From: an uncultured Ignavibacteriaceae bacterium
Lineage (GTDB): Bacteria; Bacteroidota; Ignavibacteria; Ignavibacteriales; Ignavibacteriaceae
Direction of reading: 5' to 3'
DNA: 64,000 nucleotides
Assembly: GCA_964448105.1 (NCBI GenBank)
Contig: CAYUVK010000006.1
Span: forward strand, 8,443-72,442
Under the pieces are notes generated by a model, which had not been told where the DNA came from, made no database searches, and saw only the letters and a list, made by a program, of their open reading frames with translations. The translations under genes were made by a program, and so were the position numbers. Below are positions 2,298-30,626 of the stretch, in pieces (the stretch's first letter is position 1; every line of letters begins with the position of its first letter).

Positions 2298-2466
2298 TTT
2301 TTATCTAATAAATAGAATTTTGCTATTGATAAATTTTTTCATCATGTTCTAACACTTTATTCACATAATTATCATTAATTTAAAAAGTCATAGTTTTTTA
2401 TTATTAGAAATGCGGAAAATAAAATATCAATTATCTAAAATGAGGGAGAATACGAGTAATTATATA

Positions 2467-3675
2467 TTATTCAATCAATGGTCCTAAATTTGTCCCTCCT
2501 GGGAAAAGAATTACGGCCACTGCAAAAGCTAAAATTGAGACTATTATACCATACATAAAAATATTGTAACATATTCTCAGGTAGCGGTATTTTTGTCCCA
2601 ATACCTGGCCAAGGTAATAGAAATCTTTTGTCATACTGCCGTAAAGAAAATCTTTATCATTCATCATTTCATTCATTCCCCATTCAAATTCTTTCAGCTT
2701 CATTTTAAAAAAATTTCCAAAGAATAAAAGGTTGACTCTTTTTTCTTTAATATCTTCATGTGTAAAAGTGCCTGAAGTAATTTTAGGACGCGTAACCAAA
2801 ACAGCAAAAATCAAAGTAACTAAACTCACAGTTGCCAATATTGCAGTAGGAATTATCAGATGCGGATTAGTATCTAATTTTCTTACCATTACAGCAACTA
2901 TTGCAGTTAAAATAAGAGTATTAATGCTTATCATAATATTAGCTTTGTTATCTGCAAGCCCGCTGAACTCTACATGCGTACGAATTGTATTACGGAACAT
3001 TGTTTCAATCCCGCGCTCAGCTTGTTTACTTTTTGCCGGTTTTTGTTTTTCAATTGTATCACCAATTTCAATTCCATTTTTTACTTTAATTAGTCTCTTT
3101 TTCAGCTTTTCAATGTTTCTTTGCCTTTGCTCTTCAAAAACTTCTTTTGCATAATCAGTATTAAATTTATTGTTCGTTAAAAAATCAATATTGGAATTCA
3201 GCCATTCAATATCCGTAAACTTGTTACCCAGCATATTTTCCCATTCCTGCCGAAGTAGCTTTACCCTGCTTTGAAACCCTTTTTGACCAATATGTGACAG
3301 GTCGGCATCGCAAATAATTTTTTCAAGTAAACTTTTAGGATTACGTGGAATCTTTGTAGCCCTTATTAAGTGAGCAACCATTTCAATTTTTTCTTCAGAA
3401 AGATGATTCTCATTACTAAAGTTTTTAAAAATCTCAATACTTTTTTCCTCATGTCCAATATAAAGTTTAATCAAACCCGTATCATGGAACCATGCGGCAA
3501 GTAAGAGAATCTCCATATCTTCATTCGATAAACCACTGTGTTCTCCAATTAGTTTTGCAGATTCAACTACATTGAGAGTATGGTCAATATTATGATAAAC
3601 GCAGCCTTCCGGTAGATTATTCTGAAATAAATTAACAACAAATTCAGATGCTTTAGTCAAGTAATTCATAATCAT
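2467..3675 (-). CDS. HD-domain phosphohydrolase fused to a C-terminal multi-TM domain (DUF5706 / PycTM-like)
   Basis: N-terminal HD motifs are present (YHNIDHT, AAWFHDTG). The C-terminal half (ERGIETMFRNTIRTHVEFSGLADNKANIMISINTLILTAIVAVMV plus two further hydrophobic helices) matches my recollection of DUF5706, the Pycsar effector TM domain. Confidence 0.75.
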   Translation of the reverse strand: MIMNYLTKASEFVVNLFQNNLPEGCVYHNIDHTLNVVESAKLIGEHSGLSNEDMEILLLAAWFHDTGLIKLYIGHEEKSIEIFKNFSNENHLSEEKIEMVAHLIRATKIPRNPKSLLEKIICDADLSHIGQKGFQSRVKLLRQEWENMLGNKFTDIEWLNSNIDFLTNNKFNTDYAKEVFEEQRQRNIEKLKKRLIKVKNGIEIGDTIEKQKPAKSKQAERGIETMFRNTIRTHVEFSGLADNKANIMISINTLILTAIVAVMVRKLDTNPHLIIPTAILATVSLVTLIFAVLVTRPKITSGTFTHEDIKEKRVNLLFFGNFFKMKLKEFEWGMNEMMNDKDFLYGSMTKDFYYLGQVLGQKYRYLRICYNIFMYGIIVSILAFAVAVILFPGGTNLGPLIE

Positions 3676-3921
3676 TTACCCCAAATAATTATTAATTTGA
3701 AGTTACTTATTTTTAAATAAAAAAGAAATTATAATTATTTATTTCTGATCTAATTACTCGGAAAAAGATACCGGATCTTATGATTTTTTAAATCATTTCC
3801 GGCTAATCGTCATCCTCGTAACTTTAAGAGAAATTGCCGGCAGGAATTATCTTAAATACAAAACGGATAATTGATACAAATGAAAATCTTTACATTCAGG
3901 ATTTACAGGCTGTTTGTCAAT

Positions 3922-4628
3922 ATTTTAATGATAACGAATCTTATTTTCTTTAGAGTGCGATTGTTCTTCAGGTTCCTCCATTTCTTTTTCATCCATTTCT
4001 TTTGAATAAGAATTATATTCTTCGGGTGAAGTTTTATGAAGTTGTTTTACTGCAGCTACAATTGCCCATATTTTATCATCGGGATGAGTTCTACCCCATG
4101 CCGGCATTCCCGTCATTTTAATTCCGTTTTTAGTTACCCAAAATAATTCTTCTGCGCTCATTTCTTTACCTGACTCACTCAAATCTGGTGCAGGCGGATT
4201 TAATCCTTTTGCCAAATTTGTTTCTTTCTTCCCCGGTGCACTGTGGCAGCTTTCACACATTTCTTGATAATGTACAAAACCTTCTTTAATCATGGATGAA
4301 TCATTTAGATCCGGAGCCTTAATCGCTTTAGAATGATGCTCAACAGAATTATCGCTTGTAGTTTCTAAAACCCATTTGGAGATTCCTGTTTCAGGTTTTA
4401 TTGCACTTACATTGTATAGGCCTGAGTAAATAAATATGATGCCTAATACGCCTAATCCAATAAATGTAAATAATATTGATAAAATGATTTTCATTGTTTT
4501 TCTTAGATATTTTAGTGAATATTTTTGTAGGATAAGTTAAAGGTTAAAAGTTAAGATTCAAAGGTCAGGGATCAAAGATTGACTATGATTAGTAATTCTT
4601 AATCCAAATTGAGTTGTTTTGAATTAGA
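3922..4628. repeat. Direct repeat copy A (~0.7 kb; cytochrome c gene plus its upstream region)
   Basis: Hand alignment with 21109-21813. The two copies are identical from ATTTTAATGATAACGAATCTTATTTT through the whole CDS. Similarity then decays through ATCAAAGAT...TTGTTTTGAA in the 5' flank. Confidence 0.8.
3925..4494 (-). CDS. Membrane-anchored monohaem c-type cytochrome (paralogue A)
   Basis: N-terminal TM helix, a single CESCH haem motif and a downstream MTGMPAWG (Met ligand region). About 23 of 189 residues differ from the 21112-21681 copy by hand alignment. Confidence 0.85.
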   Translation of the reverse strand: MKIILSILFTFIGLGVLGIIFIYSGLYNVSAIKPETGISKWVLETTSDNSVEHHSKAIKAPDLNDSSMIKEGFVHYQEMCESCHSAPGKKETNLAKGLNPPAPDLSESGKEMSAEELFWVTKNGIKMTGMPAWGRTHPDDKIWAIVAAVKQLHKTSPEEYNSYSKEMDEKEMEEPEEQSHSKENKIRYH

Positions 4629-4963
4629 TAATGACCAGAATAGTTCTTTTGTATTTTCACCATTAAAAGTTAGAGCAGTATAAGAAATCATTTTTTTATA
4701 TTTATCAAAATATTGCATGAAAGATTTTGGCAAAGGTAACACGAATACCCCGTTACTAATTTCCTCTAATCTTATTCCTTTTAAAGAAATATCCTTTATA
4801 ATAAAATTACTTGTGTTTTTTACAGAAAATTCTTGAAAGAATAGTAAATTATAAGGTATAAGATAAAAGTTTTATTATTAATCTAATTTGCAAATTATTT
4901 TTTTACTGCATACATTCCGTTAAAATTTATGGCTGAGTTTCCAAATTATGTGCAGGTAGATAC

Positions 4964-7474
4964 ATGTTTAAGTTAAATAAATTTTTGCCTTGGTTATCCA
5001 TCCGGAACAAACTGATTATTGCATTTACAGGTCTTTCTTTATTGCCCATTATGGTAGTCGGTGTATATGGAATTGTTACTAACACGAAGATGATGAGACA
5101 TATTGCAATTCAAAATCTCAATCATGATCTTTCCTTGCTTCAGGAAAATACGGCAAGCCTAATGTCTGGGATAGAAAGTGATCTTCGGCTGATTCAAAAT
5201 TCATATTTGAATAAGAATTTATTGAATACATCGAAAGATCAACACTATTTTTTACAAACACATACAATTAAAGATTTAAATGACGGACTTCTATCTTTAG
5301 TTAAATCACGAAGGATTTACTACCAGATTAGAGTTATGGATTATTTGGGAAATGAAATTTCACGCGTACAATCAGAATCATCCAATTTGACAGATGATTC
5401 ATATCAGATTGTTGCCAGAAATGAATTACGACCATTTCCTGAAGTCTATTACCTTTATCTTGTAAAAAATCTTTCCAAAGGTCAAATTGCATTAGCTCCG
5501 GCCGAACTTCGTGGAACAAATAATAAATTAATACCTGTGGTAAGTTTTGCTGTGCCTATAAGTTATGGAGACAAGGAATCCGGTATTCTTATTGCAGATG
5601 TGTATGTTAAAAGCCTTTTCGGCTCTTTACAGACTTATAAACCTCTAGCCCAGGATGAGGAAGTAATTTTAGCAAGCAGCGATGGTCATTACCTTTATCA
5701 TTCTTTAAAGAAAAAGAACTGGAATAAATTGTTAGCTGAAAGAAATGAATATAATCTTCAGCATGATTTTTCTGTTCCTGTAACAAATAAAATTCTTTCA
5801 AACCGGAAATCTACATTTATCGATGAAAGTAATTATATAATCTCTCATTCACCACTTTTCTATGGATATTCTTCAGTTTATCATTCAAGCATAGAACAGA
5901 GTTTCGCAATTCCGTTATATTTAATTGTTGCTGTTCCTAAAGCAATCATTATGTCTCCTGTTCACTCTTATGAAAATACATTTGCAGGTATACTTGTATT
6001 ATTCCTTATCATTTCAATTACATTAAGCCTATTGGCGACAAGACATTTTACTACTTCGCTTGCAACACTTACAAGAGGGGCTGAAACAATTACCAAAGGG
6101 AATTATGATTACAGGGTTAATGTAGAGACGGGTGATGAGATTGAAAAATTAGCTGAGCAATTCAATTTAATGGCAAAATCATTATTTGCACATGAAAAGG
6201 AAATACAGCAATATAGATTACACCTTGAAGAAATGGTTGCTTCCAGAACGGAAGAGCTTTTTTCCGAAAAATCAAAGTTGCAGGCCATACTTGATAATTT
6301 ACCGAGTGCATTTTTACTTCTTGATAAAGAATTGCGTATACAAACTGCAAGCGCTGCATTTAATACAATCACGGGTTACAATATTGATGATGTAAAAGGA
6401 GAAAATTGCAGCAAGATTTTCGGTACAAACGGATCATGTACTAATTGCATTTGCCAGAAAGCAATTTCAAATAATAAAATTGAAAGCTATATAAGCTGTA
6501 AAATAGATAACAAGCAGCAAGAACGCTACATTGAACATGTTGCCATTCCAATGAAGTATAATAGTGAAGTGATTGCCGTATTAGCAGTTATTACAGATAT
6601 TACGAAACGAAAGCAATTGGAAAATGTTTTAGTTAAAACAGAGAAGCTTGCTGCAACAGGAGAGATTGCAGCATTTGTAGCCCATGAATTCCGTAATTCT
6701 CTGACATCAATTAAAATGATTCTTCAACTTTTAGCGGAATCTGAACACGTTTCGAAGTCTGAAAAAAAATCTGTTACCGTTGCACTCAATTCTACCGGGG
6801 AAATGGAAGAAACTGTTACCAAGCTGCTTAACTATGCTTACCCGGTTCCGATGAACTTTCAAGCTGCAAGCATTGACACGATATTGAATGAAAGTCTCGT
6901 TTTTGTCCAGCTCCGTTTTCGTAAATCAAGGATATCTATCAAAAAAGAAATCGAACCTTCAATTCCACCAATATTTTTAGATGCTTCACATTTAAAGGAA
7001 GCAATAATTAATGTTCTTTTGAATGCCGTTCAGTCGATAGATGAAAAAAATAATTCATCTGAAAGTATAAACTTCGAAAAAGACGCAGTTAATAAAATTG
7101 GGATTTCAGTACGGAAAATAAATCTTAAAAAGACACTTCACGATTATAAATTAGAAGAAGCTATTGAATACACACATATTGAAAATGCAGATCGCAATAA
7201 ATATGAGATAATTTTACCAAAGGGAACCGAGTGTATTCTTTTACAAATTACCGATACCGGCGGTGGCATAGATCGTAAAGATATTTCGAGAATTTTCGAT
7301 CCGTTCTTCACTACAAAAACTAATGGTACCGGACTAGGGCTTCCAATGGTAAAGAGAACTATTAATGCTCATCGGGGTATTATTACAGTAGAAAGTAAAA
7401 AGGGAGCGGGTACAACTTTTGGTATCTTTATCCCATTACTTAACGAAGGTGATTCATTTCCTAAACATATCTGA
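4964..7474 (+). CDS. Sensor histidine kinase (2 TM, periplasmic Cache-like domain, HAMP, PAS, HisKA, HATPase)
   Basis: Two TM segments flank a ~300-aa extracytoplasmic region. H-box FVAHEFRNSL, N-box NVLLNAVQS, G-boxes DTGGGI and GTGLGL. PAS-like segment LQAILDNLPSAFLLLD. Confidence 0.9.
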   Translation: MFKLNKFLPWLSIRNKLIIAFTGLSLLPIMVVGVYGIVTNTKMMRHIAIQNLNHDLSLLQENTASLMSGIESDLRLIQNSYLNKNLLNTSKDQHYFLQTHTIKDLNDGLLSLVKSRRIYYQIRVMDYLGNEISRVQSESSNLTDDSYQIVARNELRPFPEVYYLYLVKNLSKGQIALAPAELRGTNNKLIPVVSFAVPISYGDKESGILIADVYVKSLFGSLQTYKPLAQDEEVILASSDGHYLYHSLKKKNWNKLLAERNEYNLQHDFSVPVTNKILSNRKSTFIDESNYIISHSPLFYGYSSVYHSSIEQSFAIPLYLIVAVPKAIIMSPVHSYENTFAGILVLFLIISITLSLLATRHFTTSLATLTRGAETITKGNYDYRVNVETGDEIEKLAEQFNLMAKSLFAHEKEIQQYRLHLEEMVASRTEELFSEKSKLQAILDNLPSAFLLLDKELRIQTASAAFNTITGYNIDDVKGENCSKIFGTNGSCTNCICQKAISNNKIESYISCKIDNKQQERYIEHVAIPMKYNSEVIAVLAVITDITKRKQLENVLVKTEKLAATGEIAAFVAHEFRNSLTSIKMILQLLAESEHVSKSEKKSVTVALNSTGEMEETVTKLLNYAYPVPMNFQAASIDTILNESLVFVQLRFRKSRISIKKEIEPSIPPIFLDASHLKEAIINVLLNAVQSIDEKNNSSESINFEKDAVNKIGISVRKINLKKTLHDYKLEEAIEYTHIENADRNKYEIILPKGTECILLQITDTGGGIDRKDISRIFDPFFTTKTNGTGLGLPMVKRTINAHRGIITVESKKGAGTTFGIFIPLLNEGDSFPKHI

Positions 7475-7484
7475 AAAATATTAA

Positions 7485-8906
7485 ATGAATAAATTTAACA
7501 AATTAAAAGAGAATAGAGGAAAAATTCTTGTTGTGGATGATGATCCCAAAATATTATTTGCCTTTCTTGAAGTTTTAAAGAAAGACGGTTATTCTGCTGT
7601 CACGGCAGGCGATGGAGAAGAAGCTTTAAAGGTAATCAGCTCCGAAAATATCGTACTGATTTTCATGGATATTTCAATTCCCAAAATAGACGGCTTGGAG
7701 GTTTTAAAAAGATTTAGAGAACTGGGGATAAATATTCCTACTATCATTATTACCGGTTACGGTATAATGCAAAATGCAATTAAAGCCATGCAGCTCGGTG
7801 CTTTTGACTATCTTACAAAACCACTTGACATAAATAAAATCAGAGAACTAACAAAAAATGCGCTGTCTAAATCGGTTAGAACTTCAGAGAATACCAAAAA
7901 CGATTTTACTTTTAATACAGATATAGTCGATAGTTATGAATTAATCGGCAGAAGCTCACGGATGCAGGAAATATATAAATTGATCGGTATGGTTTCCACG
8001 ACACCCAATACAGTTCCGGTATTAATCACAGGTGAAAGTGGTACGGGAAAAGAATTGGTAGCCAGGGCAATTCACGGCAACACATTAGAAACAGGTCACC
8101 CTTTTATAGGAATTAATTGTTCTGCGGTTCCTGATAACCTGCTTGAATCAGAACTGTTCGGTTACGAAAAGGGTGCCTTTTCGGGTGCTGAGACCCGTAA
8201 GTTAGGGAAGTTTGAACTTGCCCAGAACGGAACGATATTCCTTGATGAAATCGGCAATCTTTTACCAAACTTGCAGCAAAAATTGTTAAGGGTACTTCAG
8301 GAAAGAGAATTTGAAAGACTCGGCGGTAATGTTCCAATAAGAGTGCAAGCTCGATTCATAGCTGCAACAAACAAAGATCTTGAACCGGAAATTAAAAAAG
8401 GAAATTTTAGGGAAGATTTTTATTTCCGGTTGAATGTTGTGTCAATTAAATTGCCTCCCCTAAGAGAACGTCCTGAAGATATTCCCCTTCTTTCAAATTA
8501 TTTTTTAGCAAAATACAATGAGCATCTTAAAAAGAAGGTTGAGGGATTTTCAAAACAAACTATGGCACTTTTAAACAATTATCAATTTCCGGGAAATGTT
8601 AGAGAACTGGAAAATTTAATTGAGAGAGCAGTAATGCTGACAAGAGGAAAAGAAATTACAGATGACCTCCTGGAAAAAATGCTTAGCTTAAATCCGGTTA
8701 AGGCGCCGGTACTTCCAATTTCAGGATCAACACTCAAACAATCACGCGAACATATTATCAGGATGTTTGAACAACAATTTATTGAAAAAAAACTAGCCAA
8801 CACACATGGAAATGTTACTCTGGCAGCTAAAGATTCAGGAATGACAAGACAAAACTTCCAGCGCATGATGAAAAAGTATAATATAAAAGCATCAGATTTT
8901 AAATAA
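7485..8906 (+). CDS. Sigma-54-dependent response regulator (NtrC family: REC + AAA+ + Fis-type HTH)
   Basis: REC domain (ILVVDDD...FMDISIPKIDG), Walker A GESGTGKE, sigma-54 contact loop as GAFSGA, and a C-terminal HTH (GNVTLAAKDSGMTRQNFQRMMKKY). Confidence 0.92.
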   Translation: MNKFNKLKENRGKILVVDDDPKILFAFLEVLKKDGYSAVTAGDGEEALKVISSENIVLIFMDISIPKIDGLEVLKRFRELGINIPTIIITGYGIMQNAIKAMQLGAFDYLTKPLDINKIRELTKNALSKSVRTSENTKNDFTFNTDIVDSYELIGRSSRMQEIYKLIGMVSTTPNTVPVLITGESGTGKELVARAIHGNTLETGHPFIGINCSAVPDNLLESELFGYEKGAFSGAETRKLGKFELAQNGTIFLDEIGNLLPNLQQKLLRVLQEREFERLGGNVPIRVQARFIAATNKDLEPEIKKGNFREDFYFRLNVVSIKLPPLRERPEDIPLLSNYFLAKYNEHLKKKVEGFSKQTMALLNNYQFPGNVRELENLIERAVMLTRGKEITDDLLEKMLSLNPVKAPVLPISGSTLKQSREHIIRMFEQQFIEKKLANTHGNVTLAAKDSGMTRQNFQRMMKKYNIKASDFK

Positions 8907-9057
8907 TATAAATCCTTCATATCAAAACCTGCATAAATAAAGATATATTAAGACAAAGATAAATCAGAATAAAAAATTACTTCGCTTAAATGAAATTGGT
9001 TCCGCTTATTTATTTATCATATACTCCTATTCCCATTATACCTATGTACCTTAAAAG

Positions 9058-9097
9058 TGTAAAATAATCTTTGGCACATGTAAAATAAAACTTGGCA
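9058..9097 (+). promoter_or_regulatory. Two 19-bp direct repeats spaced 21 bp apart (candidate enhancer / UAS for the sigma-54 activator)
   Basis: TGTAAAATAATCTTTGGCA (9058-9076) and TGTAAAATAAAACTTGGCA (9079-9097). They lie ~75-115 bp upstream of the candidate -24/-12 element. Confidence 0.35.
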
Positions 9098-9170
9098 GTT
9101 TTTCCTTCTCAAAAATAATTCTATCCGTGTAAATCTCTACTAATGAACTATTTAATACATTTACTCAAAC

Positions 9171-9184
9171 GGCATACATGTTGA
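9171..9184 (+). promoter_or_regulatory. Candidate sigma-54 (-24/-12) promoter
   Basis: GGCATACATGTTGA compared with the consensus GGCAC-N5-TTGC. The GG and the TTG are at the correct spacing, but the final C is an A. It lies ~35 bp upstream of the REC gene start. Confidence 0.35.
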
Positions 9185-9216
9185 ACAAACCATATTAAAT
9201 TATTTGTGCAAAAGTA

Positions 9217-9606
9217 GTGATGAATAGACCAAAGATATTAGTTGTAGATAGTGATAAAAATATTCTTTCAGCTTTCAGTAATTATTTAAGGAAGAAAAAA
9301 TATTCAATGACCGGTGTAAATAATATTGAAGCAGGATTGAATAAAATCTATAAACAAAATTTTAATCTTGTGATTACTGATGTTAGGATTAATTCGGAAT
9401 TTGGAACAAGTTTTATCTCACAAATTAAAGAGACCCAAAATAGCTTACCAATAATTGCAATTACAAGTTATCCAGATAAAATAAAAGAATCCGATTTGAA
9501 AATTTGCGGTGCAGATTATCTTTTTATAAAACCTTTAGAACTTAGTCAGCTTGATAAAGCAATCGAAAACTGTTTAAAATCAAATTTAACAAACAAAATA
9601 ATATAG
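9217..9606 (+). CDS. Stand-alone receiver (REC) domain response regulator
   Basis: CheY-like pattern ILVVDSD...LVITDVRIN...IIAITS...K. There is no output domain. The start is GTG 9217 or ATG 9220. Confidence 0.85.
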   Translation: MMNRPKILVVDSDKNILSAFSNYLRKKKYSMTGVNNIEAGLNKIYKQNFNLVITDVRINSEFGTSFISQIKETQNSLPIIAITSYPDKIKESDLKICGADYLFIKPLELSQLDKAIENCLKSNLTNKII

Positions 9607-9615
9607 GGTGAAAAA

Positions 9616-10995
9616 ATGGTATCAACTACTTTTATATTTTTTATAGAATCACTTTTAGGACAGAAGAAGAAGAAAATATATCTTATTCTATCCATAATTG
9701 GAATGCTCATGTTTCTGACTGCACCCAATAATTATGCTATTCCAAGCTTTGCAAGACAGACTAATTTATCATGCAATTACTGTCATTACACTTATCCTGC
9801 CCTGACCCCGTTCGGGAGGATGTTTAAACTGAACGGGTATACTATGACAAATGTTGAAACGATCGAAGCCGTTTCACCGGATAGTGAACATACAACGCTG
9901 AAGATTCCATCGACATATTCATTTTCTGCATTTGTGAAATCTTCATACACTTCTATAAGCAAAGCAGCACCGGGTATAAAAAATAGCTTTGTTCAATCTC
10001 CCGAAGAAATAAGCTTATTTTTCTCAGGCGAAATAACTCCAAAAATAGGTGCATATGCTCAACTTACATACGGTTTAAGCGATGGAGCTATTGGGTTGGA
10101 TATGCTCGATATCAGATATGCAGATCATGCAAGACTTGGAACGAAAGATCTGTTGTATGGGATAACATTAAATAATATGCCAACTATGCAGGATGTTTGG
10201 AACACAACTCCAGCCTGGGGTTTTCCATATTATGGTTCTGAATCGGCTCCATCTCCTACCGCCGCTACTTTAATACAATCGATGGAAGGTGTTGCAGGTT
10301 TAGGTGCTTATGCGCTGTATAATAATTTAATTTACGTGGAGGTTACGGGTTATCATTCTTCACCAGCTGGAGTTTCTTATCCGCCCGATGCCTCATGGGA
10401 AATGAATACTAAAGGAGTGTCACCATACTGGAGAATAGCACTTCAGCATAAATGGGAAAGTCAATATGTTATGGTAGGAACTTACGGCATGTCTTCAAGT
10501 ATTTATCCGGCAGGAATAACCGGCTCAACAAATAAATATACGGATGTCGGCTTTGATGCTCAATATGAAAATATTGGTGATAATGGGGGTTCATGGATTT
10601 TTCATACAACATATATAACCGAGAAACAAAATCTGGATGCGACTTTTAGTGATGAAGGTTCGGCTAATGCAAGCGACAAATTAAATTATTTTAAGATCGA
10701 CGGTACGTACAATTTCCCTGAGTTGGCATCACTTTCGGCAGGATTCTTCTCAGTAAGCGGTTCAAACGATGCAATTCTATATGCTCCGGGTGATGTTTCA
10801 GGAAGTCTTAACGGTGAGCCGAACAGCAGCGGTGAAATCCTTCAATTGACATTCTTACCCTGGATGAATACTCAAATTGGAGTTCAGTACACACTATACA
10901 ATAAATTCAATGGTTCCAGCAGTAACTATAATGGTTCGGGCAGAAATGCTTCCGATAATAATACTTTGTATTTAATGGGATGGTTCGTGTTCTAA
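9616..10995 (+). CDS. Fused monohaem cytochrome c / outer-membrane beta-barrel protein (Cyc2/Cyt572-like architecture)
   Basis: Signal peptide (KKKKIYLILSIIGMLMFLTAPNNYA), a single CNYCH immediately after the predicted cleavage site, then ~400 aa rich in Gly/Tyr/Ser with alternating strands. It ends in the OMP-type terminus GWFVF. Confidence 0.6.
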   Translation: MVSTTFIFFIESLLGQKKKKIYLILSIIGMLMFLTAPNNYAIPSFARQTNLSCNYCHYTYPALTPFGRMFKLNGYTMTNVETIEAVSPDSEHTTLKIPSTYSFSAFVKSSYTSISKAAPGIKNSFVQSPEEISLFFSGEITPKIGAYAQLTYGLSDGAIGLDMLDIRYADHARLGTKDLLYGITLNNMPTMQDVWNTTPAWGFPYYGSESAPSPTAATLIQSMEGVAGLGAYALYNNLIYVEVTGYHSSPAGVSYPPDASWEMNTKGVSPYWRIALQHKWESQYVMVGTYGMSSSIYPAGITGSTNKYTDVGFDAQYENIGDNGGSWIFHTTYITEKQNLDATFSDEGSANASDKLNYFKIDGTYNFPELASLSAGFFSVSGSNDAILYAPGDVSGSLNGEPNSSGEILQLTFLPWMNTQIGVQYTLYNKFNGSSSNYNGSGRNASDNNTLYLMGWFVF

Positions 10996-11531: not shown

Positions 11532-11553
11532 TTAAGCCCCATACCCGTTAAAC

Positions 11554-11582
11554 TTGCCTGCCGGAAGGCAGGCTTGTTTACT
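11554..11582 (+). terminator. Rho-independent terminator
   Basis: GCCTGCC-GGAA-GGCAGGC stem-loop followed by TTGTTT, located 25 bp after the stop of the cytochrome gene. Confidence 0.6.
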
Positions 11583-11715: not shown

Positions 11716-12228
11716 ATGAGAAATAAAATATTCATTTTAGTTTTCTTCATATTAGGTTTTGTTATTAGTCTCTTACTAATAAATGATAATTCAAAGAATG
11801 CCACGGATATCGATCCTGTGTCTTTCAGCCACTATGTCCATACCAAAGAGCATAAGATAAAATGTGTAAATTGCCACAGGGGTGTTGAAACACAAGCGCG
11901 TGCAGAAATCCCTAATGTAAAAATTTGCAGTGTCTGTCATTCAAGGTTAATGAATCCTAAATCGGAAAAAGAAAAAAAGATTTATGAGTATGTGAAAGAA
12001 AACAAAACAATTCCCTGGAAAGTATTCTATTATGTTCCAGATTATGTTTACTTCTCTCACAGAAGACATGTTAAGCTTGGCAAATTGGATTGTACCGCTT
12101 GTCATGGTGATATGAGAGAGCAAACTTCACCTGAACTGAAAAATTTTAGCCCGGTAAAAATGCAATTTTGTTTTCAATGCCATGAAGATAAAAAAATAAC
12201 AACAGACTGCGGCAACTGCCATCATTGA
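11716..12228 (+). CDS. Membrane-anchored pentahaem cytochrome c (ActA/QrcA-like)
   Basis: N-terminal TM helix and five CxxCH motifs (CVNCH, CSVCH, CTACH, CFQCH, CGNCH). Confidence 0.85.
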   Translation: MRNKIFILVFFILGFVISLLLINDNSKNATDIDPVSFSHYVHTKEHKIKCVNCHRGVETQARAEIPNVKICSVCHSRLMNPKSEKEKKIYEYVKENKTIPWKVFYYVPDYVYFSHRRHVKLGKLDCTACHGDMREQTSPELKNFSPVKMQFCFQCHEDKKITTDCGNCHH

Positions 12229-12282: not shown

Positions 12283-14547
12283 ATGGAAATTAATAGAAGG
12301 GATTTTGTGAAACTGTTTGGAGGTTCTTTATTTGGACTTGCAATCGGAGGCGGTGCCGGAGCTATGTTAAAGCTTCCTAAAAAAGCAGAACCAATTCTTT
12401 ATTCCGGCCCAAGGATTGAATCCTGGAAATTGACTGCTTGTACAAAGTGTCCGGGCAGCTGCAGCCTTAGGATTCGTCTTATTGATGATCTCCCAATCCA
12501 GGCATTCGGTAATCCAAATTCTCCAATAAATGAAGGTGGAATTTGCCCGCTAGGGCTTGTGTCTGTAGCAGATTTATATCATCCTGCCCGGCTTACAAAT
12601 CCTGTTAAAAAAATAAACGGTGAATTTAAACCGGTATCTTATAAAGAAGCTTATAATATTATTTCTGATAATTTGAAGAATATTATTTCGAACAAAAGGC
12701 AGGATGATGTTTTTATTGTTGCACAAACCGAGTCAAAATTTCGAGTTGAATTGTTTCGGAAATTTTCTGATACCACTGGTTTTAAAAATCTAATAATTGA
12801 TAATTTCCGTGACGGAAGCTCTTTTCCGTTTTTTAAAGCAGCAGGTAATGCCCCGGATTTTATTGATTTTGATAAGTGCGATTATATATTAAACTTTGAT
12901 GCACAGTTCACCGAGATTTCTCAAAATCCTATTTACTTTACAAGAAAGATAAATGAATACAGATCTAAAGGATTTAAGATTACGACTGTTCAACCAAAGT
13001 TAACACCGGGTGTTGCTAAATTAGATGAATGGATACCCCTTCAGCCTGTTTTATTTGGAAATTTTGCATTGGGAGTTGCATATGTCTTATTGAAAGATGA
13101 CCAGTATGACAAAAGCTTTTTAGAGGAAAACTTTTCCGGATTTACCGATTTTAAAAATCATGTGCTGGAAAATTATGTACCGGATAAAGTGGCAAAGTTA
13201 ACAGGTATACCTGCAGAGAAAATTATTGAGATAGGCAGAGAATTTGAAAAAGCATCATCACCTGCTGCCTATTTTGATGAGTCGGTATTGTATAATTCAA
13301 ACGGGACACAAAATGCCTTTGCTATAATTGCCTTAAATGCATTAAAAGGATTTCGCAGCTTTGGTAAAATAAAGAATAGTTTTTTATCATCAGTTTTACA
13401 AAATGAAAGCCGGGAGATCAATATAACTTTTACAAATTTGATGGCTCGGCTTTCAAAAAGTAACGCTCTACAAGCTCTACTAATATCCGGAAGTAATTTT
13501 GTGTTCAATAGTCCCGATAGTGAAGCTCTGAAAAAACAATTAAGTTCCATTCCTTTTATTGTCAGCTTCTCCTCCTTTGTAGATGAAACTTCTTCATTTG
13601 CGCATTTGATAATTCCAGACCACTGCAATTTAGAAAAGCTTGACCTGCTGCTTAACAATTCGATGGGAGTACCTGCTGTTACCTTACAACAGCCGGTTGT
13701 TGAACCTTTTTTCAAAACTTCTGATACAGGTGATGTGCTAATATCTTTAATGAAGGAGATTAAACCGGAAGCAAAAGTTCAATATGAAAATTATTCAGAT
13801 TATATCACACAGATAGCAAAGAAAATTTACTCAGGCAGAGAAGGTATTTTTATGGATCAAAATAAGCCGACGGTGATTGAGAAAGGATTAAGGAAAATCG
13901 GGTGGCAGACCGAACAATTCGGCAGCTTTGATGATTTCTGGGACAGCCTGACGGATTCAGGAGGATGGTGGGATCCTTTTGCGGAAAAAGAACCATACAA
14001 TCCCAAAATTGATTTTAAACCGGCGTTTTATAAAGAATCTTTTACGACAAAGAACTCATTGAACTCCATACCAAAGAATAAACTACATTTAAACATCTTT
14101 AAAAGAAACTTGGACTATAAAGGGAACATGAGCATTTATCCCGTTCTTGTAGAACAGTTCGGGAGCAACTGGTCTGTCTTCTATCAACTATGGGCTGAGA
14201 TAAACCCGGTGACGGCACGCAGTTTATCTCTGCGTGATAGAAGCAAAGTAATATTAAAAACTAACAAAGGAAAATTCCCGGCAGTTTTAATTTACAATCC
14301 TACTGTTGTACCGGGCAACCTGGATATTCCTTTTGGATTAGGACATACGATTCTGGGTGACACATGCGGTGTTAACCCACTAATTTTTTCAGAAAATAAA
14401 ATTGATAAACCAACCGGTAAACCTTCTTTTTCCGAATCATTAATTGAGATTGAAGGTTCTTCGTTAAAAAATTCTTCGTTGGCTGAACAAGTGAAATTAA
14501 ATCAAAAACAATTTGCAGAAAATCAAGTTAGGAGAGATTATGCCTAG
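12283..14547 (+). CDS. Tat-exported molybdopterin-oxidoreductase-family (MopB) subunit (ActB1/QrcB/PsrA-like)
   Basis: Twin-arginine signal MEINRRDFVKLFGG. N-terminal FS0-type cluster motif CTKCPGSC...GGICPLG. 754 aa. Confidence 0.85.
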   Translation: MEINRRDFVKLFGGSLFGLAIGGGAGAMLKLPKKAEPILYSGPRIESWKLTACTKCPGSCSLRIRLIDDLPIQAFGNPNSPINEGGICPLGLVSVADLYHPARLTNPVKKINGEFKPVSYKEAYNIISDNLKNIISNKRQDDVFIVAQTESKFRVELFRKFSDTTGFKNLIIDNFRDGSSFPFFKAAGNAPDFIDFDKCDYILNFDAQFTEISQNPIYFTRKINEYRSKGFKITTVQPKLTPGVAKLDEWIPLQPVLFGNFALGVAYVLLKDDQYDKSFLEENFSGFTDFKNHVLENYVPDKVAKLTGIPAEKIIEIGREFEKASSPAAYFDESVLYNSNGTQNAFAIIALNALKGFRSFGKIKNSFLSSVLQNESREINITFTNLMARLSKSNALQALLISGSNFVFNSPDSEALKKQLSSIPFIVSFSSFVDETSSFAHLIIPDHCNLEKLDLLLNNSMGVPAVTLQQPVVEPFFKTSDTGDVLISLMKEIKPEAKVQYENYSDYITQIAKKIYSGREGIFMDQNKPTVIEKGLRKIGWQTEQFGSFDDFWDSLTDSGGWWDPFAEKEPYNPKIDFKPAFYKESFTTKNSLNSIPKNKLHLNIFKRNLDYKGNMSIYPVLVEQFGSNWSVFYQLWAEINPVTARSLSLRDRSKVILKTNKGKFPAVLIYNPTVVPGNLDIPFGLGHTILGDTCGVNPLIFSENKIDKPTGKPSFSESLIEIEGSSLKNSSLAEQVKLNQKQFAENQVRRDYA

Positions 14548-15229
14548 ATACGGGATGGTTATTGATCTTAATAAGTGCAATCAATGTGAAGCATGTGTTA
14601 CCGCTTGCAAGCTTGAAAATAACGTTCAGATAGTTTCAAAAGAAAATGCCGAAATGGGAAGAGTTATGCAATGGATGAAAATGCTTACGACAAATCATGA
14701 GGGAAATTACCCGGAAATTAGACCTGTAAGTCTCCCAGTTTTTTGTGTCCAGTGTGATGATCCCCCTTGTATAAAAGTATGTCCGGTAAGAGCAACTTAT
14801 AAAAGAGACGACGGAATCGTTGCACAAATTTATCCTCAGTGCATAGGATGCAGGTATTGCATGGCTAACTGCCCTTACACAGTAAAAGTATTCAACTGGT
14901 ATAAAGATGAACAGCCTGTTGAATATGAAAAATGCTATAACACTGATGTTTCTGTACGACCTAAAGGTATAGTTGAGAAATGTACTTTTTGTATCCATCG
15001 ATTACAAAAAGCTAAGGAAAAGTCAAAAGCTGAACATAGAAAAATGCAGGAAGAAGATTATGTTACTGCATGTACAGAAGTATGCCCTGCCCATGCAATT
15101 CATTTTGGTGATCTGGATGATCCCAACAGTCATGTTTCCAAATTAATGAACGATTATAGAAAGTTCACGTTACAGGAAGAACTGGGAACGGAACCGAAGG
15201 TTTATTACTTGAGCGAAAAATCCCAATGA
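14540..15229 (+). CDS. 4x[4Fe-4S] ferredoxin-type subunit (ActB2/QrcC/PsrB-like)
   Basis: Cys clusters CNQCEACVTAC, CVQCDDPPCIKVCP, CIGCRYCMANCP and CTFC. I prefer the ATG at 14540 (MPRYGMVIDLNKC), which is preceded by AGGAGA, over the track start at 14513. Confidence 0.9.
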   Translation: MPRYGMVIDLNKCNQCEACVTACKLENNVQIVSKENAEMGRVMQWMKMLTTNHEGNYPEIRPVSLPVFCVQCDDPPCIKVCPVRATYKRDDGIVAQIYPQCIGCRYCMANCPYTVKVFNWYKDEQPVEYEKCYNTDVSVRPKGIVEKCTFCIHRLQKAKEKSKAEHRKMQEEDYVTACTEVCPAHAIHFGDLDDPNSHVSKLMNDYRKFTLQEELGTEPKVYYLSEKSQ

Positions 15230-15268: not shown

Positions 15269-16615
15269 ATGAACAATCAAAACTTCGTTGATGAAGATGA
15301 GACATTATTTAGACCTATATATCACACCGGAAAAGGTTTCTATGCTTTTGCAGCCGCCTTAGCAGCCATAGTTTTGTTCGGCATTTTTATGTATATCCGT
15401 CAGCTCATATTCGGACTTGGAGTTACCGGAATGAACGAACCTGTAAGCTGGGGATTTTATATAATCAGCTTTGTTTTCTTTATTGGTATTTCACATGCAG
15501 GAACACTTATATCTGCAATTCTACGATTGTCAAAAGCAGAATGGCGGAGGCCGATAACTAGAATGGCAGAAGTGATTACTGGAATTGTCCTTTTGATTGG
15601 TGGTCTTCATCCAATTATTGACTTAGGCAGACCGGACAGGATACTTCATATATTTGAACGTGGGCGTTTACAATCTCCGCTTCTTTGGGATGTTACCAGC
15701 ATAACCGCCTATTTTACCGCTTCAACAATTTACCTTTATCTTCCATTAATTCCAGACATTGCACTGCTAAGAGATAGAGGCGGAAGATTTCATAAGATTT
15801 ATGAAATATTATCCTGGGGATACGAGGGTACCGAAAAACAAAAACATGTTCTGGAAAGAGCAATAAATATTTTGATGGTCATGGTTATTCCAATTGCAGT
15901 TTCGGTTCATACCGTAATCTCATGGATATTCTCAATGACTTTGCAGCCTGGTTGGCACAGCACTATTTTCGGTCCTTATTTTGTTGTGGGTGCAATTTAT
16001 TCAGGTATAGCTGCACTTATAATTGTTATGATTGCATTCCGGAAAGCTTACCATTTACAAGATTATCTCAAAGAAATTCATTTTAGATATCTTGGTACGC
16101 TGCTTTTGGTCATGTCGCTGCTCTGGTTTTATTTCACATTTGCTGAATACTTAACTACTTTTTACGGGCATGAGCCGCCGGAAATGCGTGTTTTCCTCTA
16201 TAAATTCGTTGGTAATTACTCTTTCTTTTTCTGGCTTATGGTAGTTTGCAATTTTATCATTCCTGTTGTCTTTTTAAGTAATAAAAAACTTAAGACCATT
16301 GGGGGAATTTTATTTACATCAATAGCGGTAGTACTCGGTATGTGGCTTGAAAGATTAATTATTATTGTTCCATCTATGGCGAATCCAAGACTTCCCTATC
16401 CAACGGGAATTTATGTCCCGTCTTTAACGGAAATATCACTTCTTCTTGCTGCTACTGCTGCATTTGTTCTAGGATTTATGGGATTTTCAAAACTATTTCC
16501 TTTGGTTTCAATATGGGAGATCAAAGAGGGACGTGAACAAAGTGTAAAAACTGTATCGGAACGGTTACACGAATATTTGCCTTCAAAAGGTCATATAAGA
16601 AATGAAATTGTATGA
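15269..16615 (+). CDS. NrfD/PsrC/ActC-family integral membrane quinone-interacting subunit
   Basis: 448 aa with about ten hydrophobic helices. NrfD-like segment VSWGFYIISFVFFIGISHAGTLISAIL. It directly follows the FeS subunit gene. Confidence 0.88.
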   Translation: MNNQNFVDEDETLFRPIYHTGKGFYAFAAALAAIVLFGIFMYIRQLIFGLGVTGMNEPVSWGFYIISFVFFIGISHAGTLISAILRLSKAEWRRPITRMAEVITGIVLLIGGLHPIIDLGRPDRILHIFERGRLQSPLLWDVTSITAYFTASTIYLYLPLIPDIALLRDRGGRFHKIYEILSWGYEGTEKQKHVLERAINILMVMVIPIAVSVHTVISWIFSMTLQPGWHSTIFGPYFVVGAIYSGIAALIIVMIAFRKAYHLQDYLKEIHFRYLGTLLLVMSLLWFYFTFAEYLTTFYGHEPPEMRVFLYKFVGNYSFFFWLMVVCNFIIPVVFLSNKKLKTIGGILFTSIAVVLGMWLERLIIIVPSMANPRLPYPTGIYVPSLTEISLLLAATAAFVLGFMGFSKLFPLVSIWEIKEGREQSVKTVSERLHEYLPSKGHIRNEIV

Positions 16616-16883
16616 GGGACTTATGTTGAGTAAAATAAAAAGTATCTTCGGAAAAAATATTCTTATTCAAACTGTACTTTTGTCATTTTTATGGATGCTT
16701 GCATCAGGGATGACACTTCTGTTAATTAATTTAGTGCAAGTCTCCTATGAAGTTAATGATCATCAATCTGCTTCAATTGCTATAAGTATTCTTGGAATTA
16801 TTGTTTTTTGGATTTTAGCAGGCATTTTAACATATGTTTTGGTCGGATTATACAAAGGAAGAAAAAAGGAGAGTAATAAATGA
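16602..16883 (+). CDS. Small two-TM membrane protein (possible accessory subunit)
   Basis: Two hydrophobic helices. It is translationally coupled on both sides (overlaps the NrfD stop, and ATGA overlap with the next gene). An alternative start is the ATG at 16620, after GAGGGA. Confidence 0.5.
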   Translation: MKLYEGLMLSKIKSIFGKNILIQTVLLSFLWMLASGMTLLLINLVQVSYEVNDHQSASIAISILGIIVFWILAGILTYVLVGLYKGRKKESNK

Positions 16884-18122: not shown

Positions 18123-18731
18123 ATGAATATTAAGTTATGTTCATTGTTTATCTTTTTTTTGTCGACTATCCTTTTTACCAAAACTGCATCTGCTGGTAAC
18201 ATTAAAGGTAAAATTAATCTTGAGGGAACAAAAAGCAACGCCGGAGTTTTAGTATTCATCGAACATGTTGACGGTTCTTTTGCTCCACTTAAAAAACCGG
18301 CAGTCATGGATCAAAAAGATTTTATGTTCATACCAAAAATATTACCAATTTTAGCAGGCACAACAGTAGACTTTTTAAATAGCGACAGCGTGCTGCACAA
18401 TGTATTTACACCAACAAAATGTGCTGATAGCTTTAATCTTGGAACTTGGCCTAAAGGCCAGTCCCGTTCATATACTTTTAATAATGCAGATTGTTTTGTT
18501 ACAATACTCTGTGATGTTCACCCTTATATGCAAGCATGGATAGCCGTACTTCAAAATCCTTTTTTTGCACAAACAAATGAAATAGGAGAATATGAAATAA
18601 AAAATATTCCCCCGGGTAATTATAAATTAAAAATCTGGTACCCGTTTTACGAAACCGAATCTAAACATATTACTGTCAGCGGTACTCAAATATTAGTAAA
18701 GAATTTTACATTAAAAAGAACAAGCGAATAA
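18123..18731 (+). CDS. Exported cupredoxin-like (type-1 copper) protein with a CarboxypepD_reg-like C-terminal beta-sandwich
   Basis: Signal peptide. Candidate T1Cu ligands are LHNVF ... CDVHPYM (C-x2-H-x2-M, amicyanin-like spacing). C-terminal segment GEYEIKNIPPGNYKLKIWYPF. Confidence 0.65.
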   Translation: MNIKLCSLFIFFLSTILFTKTASAGNIKGKINLEGTKSNAGVLVFIEHVDGSFAPLKKPAVMDQKDFMFIPKILPILAGTTVDFLNSDSVLHNVFTPTKCADSFNLGTWPKGQSRSYTFNNADCFVTILCDVHPYMQAWIAVLQNPFFAQTNEIGEYEIKNIPPGNYKLKIWYPFYETESKHITVSGTQILVKNFTLKRTSE

Positions 18732-30260: not shown

Positions 30261-30283
30261 TTTATACCTCCTTGTATTAATTT

Positions 30284-30625: not shown

Positions 30626-30626
30626 A

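Follow-up and report, generated by a model that had tools for sequence, protein, structure and literature searches.

A Cyc2-family fused cytochrome-porin within a conserved redox gene cluster of an uncultured Ignavibacteriaceae bacterium

Gene content of the Cyc2 locus

The window analysed here, a 64,000-nt stretch of DNA from an uncultured Ignavibacteriaceae bacterium, carries a gene for a Cyc2-family fused monohaem cytochrome-porin, preceded by regulatory genes and followed by genes for cytochromes, an ACIII/Qrc-like complex and a cupredoxin (Table 1). Reports of Cyc2 homologues from Ignavibacteriaceae, Bacteroidota, Zixibacteria and Gemmatimonadota go back to 2019, and the useful lead at this locus is the conserved gene cluster. 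Sensor kinase, sigma-54 regulator, receiver, Cyc2, monohaem cytochrome c, ACIII/Qrc-like complex, tetrahaem cytochrome c and cupredoxin are clustered in about 15 related genomes. The genome loci compared in this study were found with an alignment of 41 close homologues (A1) and represent close relatives only (46-77% identity), all of which are metagenome bins.

Table 1. Features of the Cyc2 locus, numbered from the first nucleotide of the window
Feature	Position	Strand	Basis or remark
Sensor histidine kinase	4964..7474	+	Pfam: periplasmic sensor domain, HAMP, PAS, HisKA, HATPase
Sigma-54-dependent response regulator	7485..8906	+	Pfam Response_reg, Sigma54_activat and HTH_8; synteny
Stand-alone receiver-domain protein	9217..9606	+	Pfam Response_reg; synteny
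Cyc2-family fused monohaem cytochrome-porin	9616..10995	+	459 aa plus stop; uninterrupted ORF
Predicted signal peptide	9616..9738	+	Residues 1 to ~41; KKKK, hydrophobic stretch, NYA
Haem-binding cytochrome core	9736..9804	+	A41-IPSFARQT49, C53-NYCH57, P61-AL63; Cyc2 diagnostic motif
16-strand beta-barrel porin domain, terminal Phe	9919..10992	+	Residues 102-459; AlphaFold2 strands, Foldseek
Monohaem class I cytochrome c, 160 aa	11049..11531	+	Pfam Cytochrom_C
Terminator-like GC-rich hairpin with T-rich tail, 3' of the monohaem c gene	11553..11573	+	Consensus scan; site numbers at chance level
Pentahaem cytochrome, ActA/QrcA-like	11716..12228	+	Five CxxCH; NCBIfam QrcA 5e-28, below cut-off
Molybdopterin-family subunit, ActB1/QrcB-like	12283..14547	+	Pfam, NCBIfam; twin-arginine signal, CX2CX3CX27C
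4Fe-4S subunit, ActB2/QrcC-like	14513..15229	+	NCBIfam QrcC 1e-79, below cut-off; DsrO 4e-56
NrfD-type quinone-site membrane subunit, ActC-like	15269..16615	+	ACIII ActC structure matches
Small hydrophobic protein, 86 aa, apparently two transmembrane segments	16623..16883	+	Called as a gene in relative L122
Membrane-anchored tetrahaem cytochrome c, 397 aa	16880..18073	+	Four CxxCH; Pfam Cytochrom_C
Cupredoxin fused to a CarboxypepD_reg-like sandwich domain	18123..18731	+	Type-1 copper site H92, C130, H133, M136

The sensor kinase gene is syntenic with the Cyc2-like gene in loci L001, L002, L005-L007, L010, L011, L013-L017, L019 and L020, and the receiver gene stops 10 nt short of the start codon of the Cyc2-like gene. 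Among the neighbours of the Cyc2-like gene, the monohaem cytochrome c gene is the most constant, lying adjacent or near in about 45 of the 82 loci. Synteny of the tetrahaem cytochrome c is kept in ACIII-type clusters, and the cupredoxin is syntenic both in these and in the bc-type clusters of L001 and L002. The copper ligands of the cupredoxin are invariant in 33 homologues, its AlphaFold2 model has a pLDDT of 91 and its Foldseek matches include amicyanin, plastocyanin and pseudoazurin.

A 17.2-kb direct repeat flanking the cluster consists of two paralogous cytochrome genes and was not taken as a sign of a mobile island.

The Cyc2-like protein and its place in the family

The strand opposite the Cyc2-like ORF is interrupted by stops throughout when read in reverse. 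The first-pass annotation had proposed a Cyc2-type architecture from a cleavable signal peptide, a single CxxCH, a Gly/Tyr/Ser/Thr-rich tract of about 400 residues, a GWFVF outer-membrane terminus and a length in the Cyc2 range, and all five features were found again. The N-terminus reads MVSTTFIFFIESLLGQ-KKKK-IYLILSIIGMLMFLTAPNNYA-IPSFARQTNLSCNYCHYTYPALTPFGRMFKLNGY, identical to the earlier quotation. A putative signal peptide was recognised by eye from a basic n-region, a 16-residue hydrophobic core and NYA preceding I42, the cleavage site being approximate, and residues 4-34 are helical in the AlphaFold2 model. The only CxxCH (C53-N-Y-C-H57) contains the sole cysteines of the 459 residues. 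Gly, Tyr, Ser and Thr make up 37% of residues 100-459, and the protein ends in GWFVF with an aromatic last residue, as related ORFs end in Phe in 75 of 82 cases. Its length compares with a family criterion of at least 365 aa, most members exceeding 400 aa.

Keffer et al. 2021 defined AXPXFAR[Q/K][T/Y] ... CXXCH ... PXL as the diagnostic motif of Cyc2. The protein bears this motif, which had gone unrecognised in the first-pass annotation, as AIPSFARQT-3 aa-CNYCH-3 aa-PAL. The gap of three residues between T49 of the A41-I-P-S-F-A-R-Q-T49 stretch and C53 is the same as in reference Cyc2 sequences, and the downstream PXL follows as H57-Y-T-Y-P61-A-L63. Residues P43, R47, Q48, T49, C53, C56, H57, P61 and L63 are invariant in A1, and Q48, C53, C56, H57 and L63 are also invariant in A2, an alignment of 47 distant homologues at 31-59% identity. 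Thus the CxxCH is not a chance occurrence, as C53, C56 and H57 are invariant in both the close and the distant homologues. Exactly one CxxCH and the core PSF[AST]RQT occur in all 82 related ORFs from species-representative genomes, so that no loss of the haem site, which would have spoken against a Cyc2, was seen in A1, in A2 or among these loci. The family comprises 3088 representatives at 50% identity, and the haem site is always kept. No Met is conserved across A2, nor any His besides H57, and a sixth haem ligand is therefore not proposed.

Full-length cyc2 genes for comparison were obtained from metagenome contigs, with the N-terminal fragment P0294 of an Acidithiobacillus sp. as the query. 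Both Acidithiobacillus-type references are thus metagenomic contigs; their type was recognised from the synteny and from 89% identity to this NCBI fragment at the N-terminus. In BLASTP, the protein is 32% identical (E 6e-70) over its whole mature length to a 485-aa cyc2 product from a cyc2-cyc1-orf-coxBAC (rus-type) contig, and 35% identical (E 5e-76) over its full length to a 474-aa cyc2 product encoded next to c4-sdr-petABC-HiPIP, both well within the limit of E 1e-5 or better that was used for homology to reference Cyc2. The closest characterised relatives by sequence are therefore Acidithiobacillus Cyc2 proteins and not ordinary substrate porins. With the diagnostic motif, the full-length homology and the barrel, the gene encodes a genuine Cyc2 family member, as the first-pass annotation had read it.

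McAllister et al. 2020 divided Cyc2 into Cluster 1 (Gallionellaceae, Zetaproteobacteria and Chlorobium), Cluster 2 (A. ferrooxidans) and Cluster 3 (Leptospirillum). The protein is tentatively assigned to the Cluster 2 type from BLAST comparisons, from a neighbour-joining tree that includes a single Cluster-1-type outgroup, and from a published figure read by machine. Whereas the Acidithiobacillus-type match covers the full length, the Cluster-1-type sequence L119 (motif CHFQHFPLLN) aligns only over the haem region, about 100 N-terminal residues (E 2e-15; 24% identity in the trimmed alignment). In the tree, with L119 as the one Cluster-1-type outgroup, the window clade groups with the Acidithiobacillus sequences and L119 lies far off on a long separate branch. 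Relative L076, from the Bacteroidota MAG Dive100_bin10.60 of a Southwest Indian Ridge study, was published as a Cyc2 homologue and is 48% identical to the window protein over residues 8-459; in the published Cyc2 alignment it is listed beside Acidithiobacillus and Thiomonas, the figure having been machine-read with its cluster labels displaced. At the sensitivity used, the L076 locus has no regulator, ACIII-like or cupredoxin neighbours, unlike the window.

Cluster 3 had been expected at first from the DeMMO survey, and FeGenie surveys report that Cyc2 matches are mainly of Cluster 3 in communities where Ignavibacteriales and Zixibacteria carry iron-oxidation genes. The motif table and the alignment with Acidithiobacillus Cyc2 over the full length led to this placement being set aside. 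Cluster 3 proteins, among them Cyt572 of Leptospirillum, are also fused monohaem cytochrome-porins, but in the published alignment their haem regions are of the form FARKY...P.LN/LA, as opposed to FARQT...P.LTPFGR.FKLNGY in the window protein, that is, the FARQT...LTP.GR.FKL.GY type. The window protein has the family motif and the architecture in common with Cluster 1 members such as Cyc2 PV-1 of Mariprofundus ferrooxydans.

The barrel presumed in the first-pass annotation is present in the AlphaFold2 model, with 16 strands of at least 9 residues each between residues 102 and 458 (pLDDT mostly 70-94, pTM 0.72). The N-terminal segment 36-99, with the CxxCH, has a pLDDT below 50; the haem may be located in or close to the opening of the barrel that faces the periplasm. 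The 50 Foldseek matches listed are mostly 16-strand porins (E 2e-9 to 6e-7), including OmpT, Omp-Pst, OmpF/OmpC and chitoporin; OprO and OprP, the porins named by Keffer, are absent among these 50. The PDB sequence search returned nothing meaningful, there being no sequence similarity to any solved porin, and the Pfam-A and NCBIfam scans assigned no family. As Cyc2 is represented by no model in Pfam or NCBIfam and by no structure in the PDB, fold matches to porins are to be expected. Porins of the OmpF/OmpC/OmpT type share the barrel fold, but the conserved N-terminal haem-binding domain is absent from them.

The ACIII/Qrc-like complex and cluster variants

The genes following the monohaem cytochrome c have Pfam matches to Molybdopterin, Fer4 and NrfD. 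The ActA-like subunit matches structures of ACIII subunit A (E 2e-20 to 1e-17), and the ActC-like subunit matches 6lod, 6f0k, 6btm and 8k9e over its full length (E 3e-69 to 2e-65). ActB is split, a feature shared with Qrc and with the ACIII of iron oxidisers, and the CX2CX3CX27C pattern of the molybdopterin-family subunit has been reported for the split ActB1 of neutrophilic iron oxidisers. Among the canonical ACIII parts, the second NrfD subunit ActF is absent and ActD and ActE were not clearly found; the cluster has one NrfD-type gene, and the tetrahaem cytochrome and the cupredoxin stand after the complex in place of ActF/ActD/ActE. Every NCBIfam Qrc score lies under its curated cut-off, so that equivalog-level Qrc is not reached. 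Given the absence of ActF and these scores, the complex is labelled ACIII/Qrc-like and is filed as neither.

An ACIII-like complex occurs in about 15 loci, and about 20 have a Rieske/cytochrome b (bc) complex instead. In L042, genes for a caa3 oxidase, a Rieske protein, cytochromes b and c, the Cyc2-like protein and the monohaem cytochrome c form one same-strand run of 8 kb, and in the window's own cluster a terminal oxidase gene is lacking. That the ACIII-like and bc complexes replace each other while Cyc2 and the monohaem cytochrome c are retained suggests that the connection is made at the cytochrome c pool.

Probable function and direction of electron flow

Cyc2 of A. ferrooxidans, a Cluster 2 protein encoded by the first gene of the rus operon, has the signal peptide, single CxxCH and 16-strand barrel in common with the window protein. 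In the published alignment the N-terminal motifs of the two are nearly the same, and the haem region is close to the Acidithiobacillus type (AIPSFARQTNLSCNYCHYTYPALTPFGRMFKLNGY in the window versus ALPSFARQTGWSCAACHTSFPQLTPMGRMFKLLGF in the rus-operon contig L094). Both the Acidithiobacillus-type and the window cyc2 are clustered with a c-type cytochrome and a cupredoxin, and in L083 also with a quinol:cytochrome c complex. The cupredoxin of the window parallels rusticyanin and AcoP of the rus operon, as well as auracyanin, a partner of ACIII. The host of the A. ferrooxidans system is an acidophilic proteobacterium, whereas that of the window is neutrophilic, low-GC and of the Ignavibacteria type. 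The partner cytochrome is a dihaem c4 in A. ferrooxidans and monohaem in the window, the membrane partner is bc1 plus aa3 in the former and ACIII-like in the latter, and the upstream two-component system with its sigma-54 activator sets the window apart from the rus operon. In a pathway model published for neutrophilic iron oxidisers, Cyc2 is paired with a cytochrome of the periplasm and with an ACIII whose ActB is split.

Of the functions considered for the protein, oxidation of Fe(II) is the most probable. The reading as a whole, to which we give a somewhat better than even chance, is that of a Cluster-2-type Cyc2 with Fe(II) as its most likely substrate, passing electrons to the periplasmic carriers encoded in the cluster. 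One polypeptide would combine the signal peptide, a c-type haem domain of about 35 residues and the 16-strand outer-membrane barrel. A single haem, bound covalently at C53 and C56 with H57 as axial ligand, could exchange single electrons with small dissolved redox species entering the pore, most likely Fe(II). In the periplasm, the cupredoxin and the two c-type cytochromes, monohaem and tetrahaem, would be the next carriers, and the ACIII-like complex (Rieske/cytochrome b in relatives) would serve the same carriers on the menaquinone side. Electrons from Fe(II) might then enter the cytochrome c pool and reach a terminal oxidase or reductase whose genes lie elsewhere; alternatively, they might be driven uphill to menaquinone via the ACIII-like complex.

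MtrCAB, MtoAB and PioAB also transfer electrons across the outer membrane by means of a haem-holding barrel, but in these systems the barrel has 26 strands and encloses a separate decahaem cytochrome, and solids are within their reach. The window protein is a single polypeptide with one haem and 16 strands, so its partners are expected to be dissolved species only.

Several observations count against Fe(II) oxidation. The close relatives are all metagenome bins from groups held to be heterotrophs and partly Fe(III) reducers, and specialists hold that iron oxidation is not assignable to Cluster 2 homologues far from Acidithiobacillus without supporting context. As characterised ACIII and bc complexes are quinol:acceptor oxidoreductases, electrons would normally go outward. 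The current could accordingly be reversed, from menaquinol through the ACIII-like or bc complex, the monohaem cytochrome c and the cupredoxin to Cyc2 and on to dissolved acceptors outside the cell, for example chelated Fe(III) or humic quinones, making Cyc2 a terminal reductase in the anaerobic respiration of heterotrophs. We consider this rather unlikely. The MenF- and MenD-like genes in the window suggest low-potential menaquinone, the lack of an oxidase in the window's cluster agrees with such a reversal, Ignavibacteriaceae are treated as reducers of Fe(III) and humics and nonetheless have Cyc2 homologues, and reversible flow has been argued for related porin-cytochrome systems. However, all Cyc2 proteins assayed so far were assayed for Fe(II) oxidation and showed it, among them those of A. 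ferrooxidans, PV-1, Leptospirillum and Ca. Mariimomonas, and the clustering with caa3 oxidase in L042 agrees with a branch that donates electrons to an aerobic chain. The adjacent bc1 (pet) complex of Acidithiobacillus is taken to run in reverse, and an adjoining quinol oxidoreductase therefore leaves the direction unfixed.

A lineage-wide form of this idea holds that in the menaquinone heterotrophs of Ignavibacteria, Bacteroidota and Kryptoniota the sigma-54-regulated set of Cyc2, monohaem cytochrome c, cupredoxin and interchangeable quinol oxidoreductase is an outward conduit, with Cyc2 as terminal reductase for dissolved acceptors. It is an unlikely proposal in our judgement; were it true, iron oxidation could not be read reliably from Cyc2 in these lineages, and extracellular respiration would be achievable with a one-haem porin.

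A Cyc2-type conduit with a small redox-active solute other than iron as its natural partner, the candidates being Mn(II), reduced sulfur or arsenic species and soluble electron shuttles, is decidedly unlikely. A role in Mn(II) oxidation has been proposed for a Cyc2 homologue of Ca. Manganitrophus and another homologue has been linked to cathode oxidation in Ca. Tenderia, the family is present in many lineages without known iron metabolism, and heavy-metal efflux genes are abundant in the window; against this, no Cyc2 has a biochemically demonstrated non-iron substrate, and the haem region almost matches that of the iron-oxidising A. ferrooxidans protein. An ordinary diffusion porin with an incidental CxxCH, or free of haem, and with no redox role is highly improbable: general porins are the closest solved structures among the fold matches listed and the Pfam, NCBIfam and PDB sequence searches gave no cytochrome match, but the CxxCH and its flanking motif are invariant in thousands of homologues, both cysteines belong to that motif, haem binding is biochemically proven for the homologous protein family, and the linkage of the gene to cytochromes and quinone complexes is persistent.

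Cyc2 is the main genetic marker from which microbial iron oxidation is inferred in metagenomes. Its homologues number thousands, of which a handful have been assayed and none from the Ignavibacteria/Bacteroidota group. The locus provides a well-defined candidate from this gap, probably of Cluster 2 type and with 32-35% identity to the Acidithiobacillus enzyme, in a cluster that is apparently self-contained, having its own sensor system, carriers (cytochrome c and cupredoxin) and quinone-coupled complex. It bears on what a FeGenie-type Cyc2 call stands for in the heterotrophs that abound in the subsurface and in sediments: the oxidation of iron, its reduction or another process.

Expression of the Cyc2 module is probably under the control of the co-located sensor kinase and sigma-54 activator. 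A search for -24/-12 sigma-54 promoters (TGGCAC-N5-TTGCW, at most 2 mismatches) gave nothing upstream of 9217 or 9616, and over the whole window the consensus was found 22 times against 22 expected by chance. The sigma-70 promoter and terminator scans were likewise at chance level. By eye, TGGCA(C/G) boxes are visible at 9072 and 9093.

Cyc2 identity and fold of the window protein

Translation gives a Cyc2-like frame that is open throughout (459 aa), with the reverse strand closed by stop codons, and the receiver-domain gene ends 10 nt before its start codon. The only CxxCH lies at C53-H57 and holds the protein's sole two cysteines, Gly, Tyr, Ser and Thr make up 37% of the remaining 360 residues, and the C-terminus is GWFVF; the sequence quoted in the first-pass annotation matches this re-read frame in length, single CxxCH, composition and end. 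Keffer et al. (2021) characterized Cyc2 by a signal peptide, one CXXCH, PXL four residues downstream, a minimum length of 365 aa and a porin of 16 strands, and described AXPXFAR[Q/K][T/Y] just upstream of CXXCH as unique to Cyc2. The window protein reads A-I-P-S-F-A-R-Q-T, NLS, C-N-Y-C-H, YTY and P-A-L in this order, and all of their sequence features are present.

An AlphaFold2 model built with a 41-sequence alignment (pLDDT 72, pTM 0.72) contains 16 long strands across residues 102-458, while the apo haem domain and linker (residues 36-99) form a low-confidence region. A Foldseek search of the PDB gave 239 matches with E <=1e-3, the best being 16-strand porins (V. cholerae OmpT, Omp-Pst1/2, OmpF/OmpC and chitoporin; target TM ~0.55). 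The barrel proposed at first pass is thus borne out by model and fold matches, and a barrel-less alternative finds no support.

Reference haem regions came from a figure in the supplement to the Southwest Indian Ridge study (machine-read, with errors), and full-length reference cyc2 genes from metagenome contigs found via that figure and an NCBI Acidithiobacillus sp. fragment. The Acidithiobacillus-type contig L094 has the order cyc2 (485 aa)-cyc1-orf-coxB-coxA-coxC, which is that of the rus operon. A second such contig, L083 (7001-13914, +), carries cyc2 (474 aa), two c4 cytochromes, an SDR, Rieske (petA), cytochrome b (petB), cytochrome c1 (petC) and HiPIP, the order after cyc2 being that described for the Acidithiobacillus pet operon; cyc2 is therefore joined to a pet-type operon in L083 versus cyc1-cox in L094. 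The window protein aligns over its whole mature length with both Cyc2 proteins, at 35% identity for L083 (455 columns, E 5e-76) and 32% for L094 (492 columns, E 6e-70), so homology runs through the barrel and is more than a shared motif. The protein is homologous to Cyc2, keeps the haem site intact and has a barrel of 16 strands, in agreement with the Cyc2-type interpretation made at first pass.

A word-indexed search gave 3875 homologues (E <=1e-3); those named among the matches listed come from bins of Ignavibacteriaceae, Bacteroidota, Kryptoniota and Zixibacteria, annotated as "cytochrome C" or hypothetical. Exhaustive phmmer over 1.84 billion cluster representatives gave 3088 matches at E <=1e-3, 393 of them at <=1e-30. 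Pfam, NCBIfam and PDB sequence searches returned no match, the family simply being absent from those libraries. P43, R47, Q48, T49, C53, C56, H57, P61 and L63 are invariant among 41 close homologues, and Q48, C53, C56, H57, L63, G67 and F70 are still invariant in 47 representatives at 31-59% identity. Exactly one CxxCH occurs in every one of 82 related ORFs from 78 species-representative genome loci (75 are Phe-terminal); beside such conservation, an inert porin is very improbable.

Probable Cluster 2 placement

Similarity between the window protein and the Cluster-1-type sequence L119 (CHFQHFPLLN...FKA) is confined to the first ~100 residues (E 2e-15); L119 shares 24% identity in the trimmed alignment and sits on a long branch of a neighbour-joining tree, apart from the group of the window clade and Acidithiobacillus sequences. 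In the published alignment, read by machine from a figure, Cluster 3 references show FARKY...P.LN/LA and Acidithiobacillus and Thiomonas show FARQT...P.LTP.GR.FKL.GY, which the haem region of the window protein resembles. The Bacteroidota bin Dive100_bin10.60 (L076), whose Cyc2-like protein shares 48% identity with the window protein, is listed beside Acidithiobacillus and Thiomonas in the Southwest Indian Ridge figure, and that paper reports Bacteroidota sequences in Cluster II. By sequence, the window protein is probably Cluster-2-type, with Cluster 3 compared by its printed haem-region motif alone and the tree being a neighbour-joining one.

A conserved gene cluster around Cyc2

Features of the window, with the Cyc2 cluster in gene order
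Feature	Position (strand)	Place	Details
Sensor kinase		upstream of Cyc2-like gene	periplasmic sensor, HAMP, PAS
Response regulator		upstream of Cyc2-like gene	sigma-54-dependent
TGGCA(C/G) boxes	9072-9098 (+)	310-nt regulator/receiver intergenic gap	two, 21 nt apart
Receiver protein		upstream of Cyc2-like gene	
Cyc2 homologue	9616-10995 (+)		459 aa
Monohaem cytochrome c		downstream, 1st	
Pentahaem cytochrome		downstream, 2nd	resembles ActA in solved structures of ACIII, E 2e-20
ActB1/QrcB-like subunit	12283-14547 (+)	downstream, 3rd	molybdopterin family; TAT signal RRDFVK; FeS motif CX2CX3CX27C
4Fe-4S subunit		downstream, 4th	
NrfD-type subunit		downstream, 5th	match to ActC in four structures of ACIII, E 3e-69 to 2e-65
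Membrane protein		downstream, 6th	86 aa
Tetrahaem cytochrome c		downstream, 7th	
Cupredoxin	18123-18731 (+)	last gene of cluster	202 aa
Cytochrome c paralogues	3925-4494 (-); 21112-21681 (-)	17.2 kb apart	189 aa, monohaem, membrane-anchored
P-type ATPase	19031-21094 (-)		His-rich
HD/PycTM protein	2467-3675 (-)		402 aa
Metal-resistance genes	29129-36876 (-); 22684-23247 (-)		
Helicase-like and DUF86/HepT-type proteins	25159-28585 (-)		994 and 120 aa
Transposase-like protein	23684-24304		206 aa
MenF-like and MenD-like genes	57662-60854 (+)	adjacent	chorismate-binding and TPP-dependent enzymes

The subunits of the complex score under the curated cut-offs of NCBIfam QrcA-D and the gene set has no ActF, and the complex is therefore labelled ACIII/Qrc-like (alternative complex III or Qrc). 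In neutrophilic iron oxidisers, Kato et al. (2015) described a split ActB1 with the identical cysteine motif, and they reported a pathway model pairing ACIII with Cyc2. In the cupredoxin, the type-1 copper ligands H92, C130, H133 and M136 show no variation among 33 homologues and are spaced C-x2-H-x2-M as in amicyanin; its model (pLDDT 91) best matches amicyanin, plastocyanin and pseudoazurin. It is fused to a CarboxypepD_reg-like sandwich domain, Pfam recognising the C-terminal domain only, and its family has >3000 members, some named "plastocyanin" by JGI.

Relatives at 54-77% identity (L005-L017, L020, L021) have Cyc2 and monohaem c followed by ACIII-like genes. In those loci that extend that far, genes for the kinase, the sigma-54 regulator and the receiver lie upstream, and those for tetrahaem c and cupredoxin downstream. 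In L001 and L002 the regulators, Cyc2, monohaem c and cupredoxin are retained, with Rieske and a cytochrome b/c fusion replacing the ACIII-like genes; in further Ignavibacteria and Bacteroidota loci, Rieske/cytochrome b and either one or two genes for monohaem c accompany Cyc2. Such neighbours were not found in Gemmatimonadota relatives at the sensitivity used. Therefore, Cyc2 and monohaem c are the constant pair and the quinone-side complex is interchangeable, with Cyc2 genetically linked both to carriers in the periplasm and to a quinone-coupled complex.

Cyc2 homologues have been reported in Ignavibacteriaceae and Bacteroidetes bins (Trout Bog), in Bacteroidota, Gemmatimonadota and Calditrichota (Southwest Indian Ridge), and as the chief iron-oxidation genes of Ignavibacteriales and Zixibacteria (DeMMO), so the window protein is not the first of its sort. 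Neither the conserved sigma-54 regulator/Cyc2/cytochrome c/ACIII-like/cupredoxin cluster nor its bc-type variant was found described in the literature searched, which left most subscription journals outside coverage; the cluster, rather than the protein itself, is the part deserving follow-up.

The TGGCA(C/G) boxes are both without a -12 TTGC element at the correct spacing. The cytochrome c paralogues, 88% identical, bracket the entire Cyc2 cluster, the second lying directly upstream of the P-type ATPase.

Function and direction of electron flow

Four Cyc2 proteins spanning all three clusters oxidised Fe(II) in assays, and Fe(II) oxidation is the most probable function here. Fe(II) would enter the barrel pore and reduce the haem, and the electron would pass to monohaem c or cupredoxin, a pool that the ACIII-like or bc complex likewise serves. 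The electron may then reach an oxidase or reductase whose gene lies elsewhere, or move uphill to menaquinone.

The MenF-like and MenD-like genes, which lie side by side, suggest menaquinone synthesis in this organism, a point relevant to which way electrons flow. Together with a Cyc2 cluster lacking oxidase genes in the window, the normal run of ACIII and bc complexes from quinol outward, and the presence of Cyc2 in Ignavibacteriaceae, which are seen as reducers of Fe(III) and humics, this makes an outward conduit, from the quinol side to the outside, a serious though less probable rival. Among the 78 loci, a CoxA match within 8 kb occurs only in L042, an uncultured Ignavibacteria bin (1536-9760, +), where a single strand carries, within 8 kb, the caa3 oxidase genes coxB (which includes a c domain), coxA and coxC together with those for Rieske, a fused cytochrome b/c, Cyc2 and monohaem c.

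Specialists caution that, for Cluster 2 homologues far from Acidithiobacillus, iron oxidation should be called only with support from context. The small size of the barrel and its one haem imply that the substrate is dissolved (Keffer et al. 2021); that this substrate is something other than iron seems doubtful.

Elsewhere in the window, the metal-resistance neighbourhood comprises an AcrB-like RND pump (1059 aa), a CusB/HlyD-type adaptor with heavy-metal-binding domains, an outer-membrane factor and small secreted Met-/His-rich proteins. Judged by eye from translations, a protein with helicase-like motifs adjoins a DUF86/HepT-type toxin-like protein, and another resembles an IS200-like or REP-associated transposase. 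The HD-domain protein carries a PycTM (Pycsar effector transmembrane) module and is a possible anti-phage effector.
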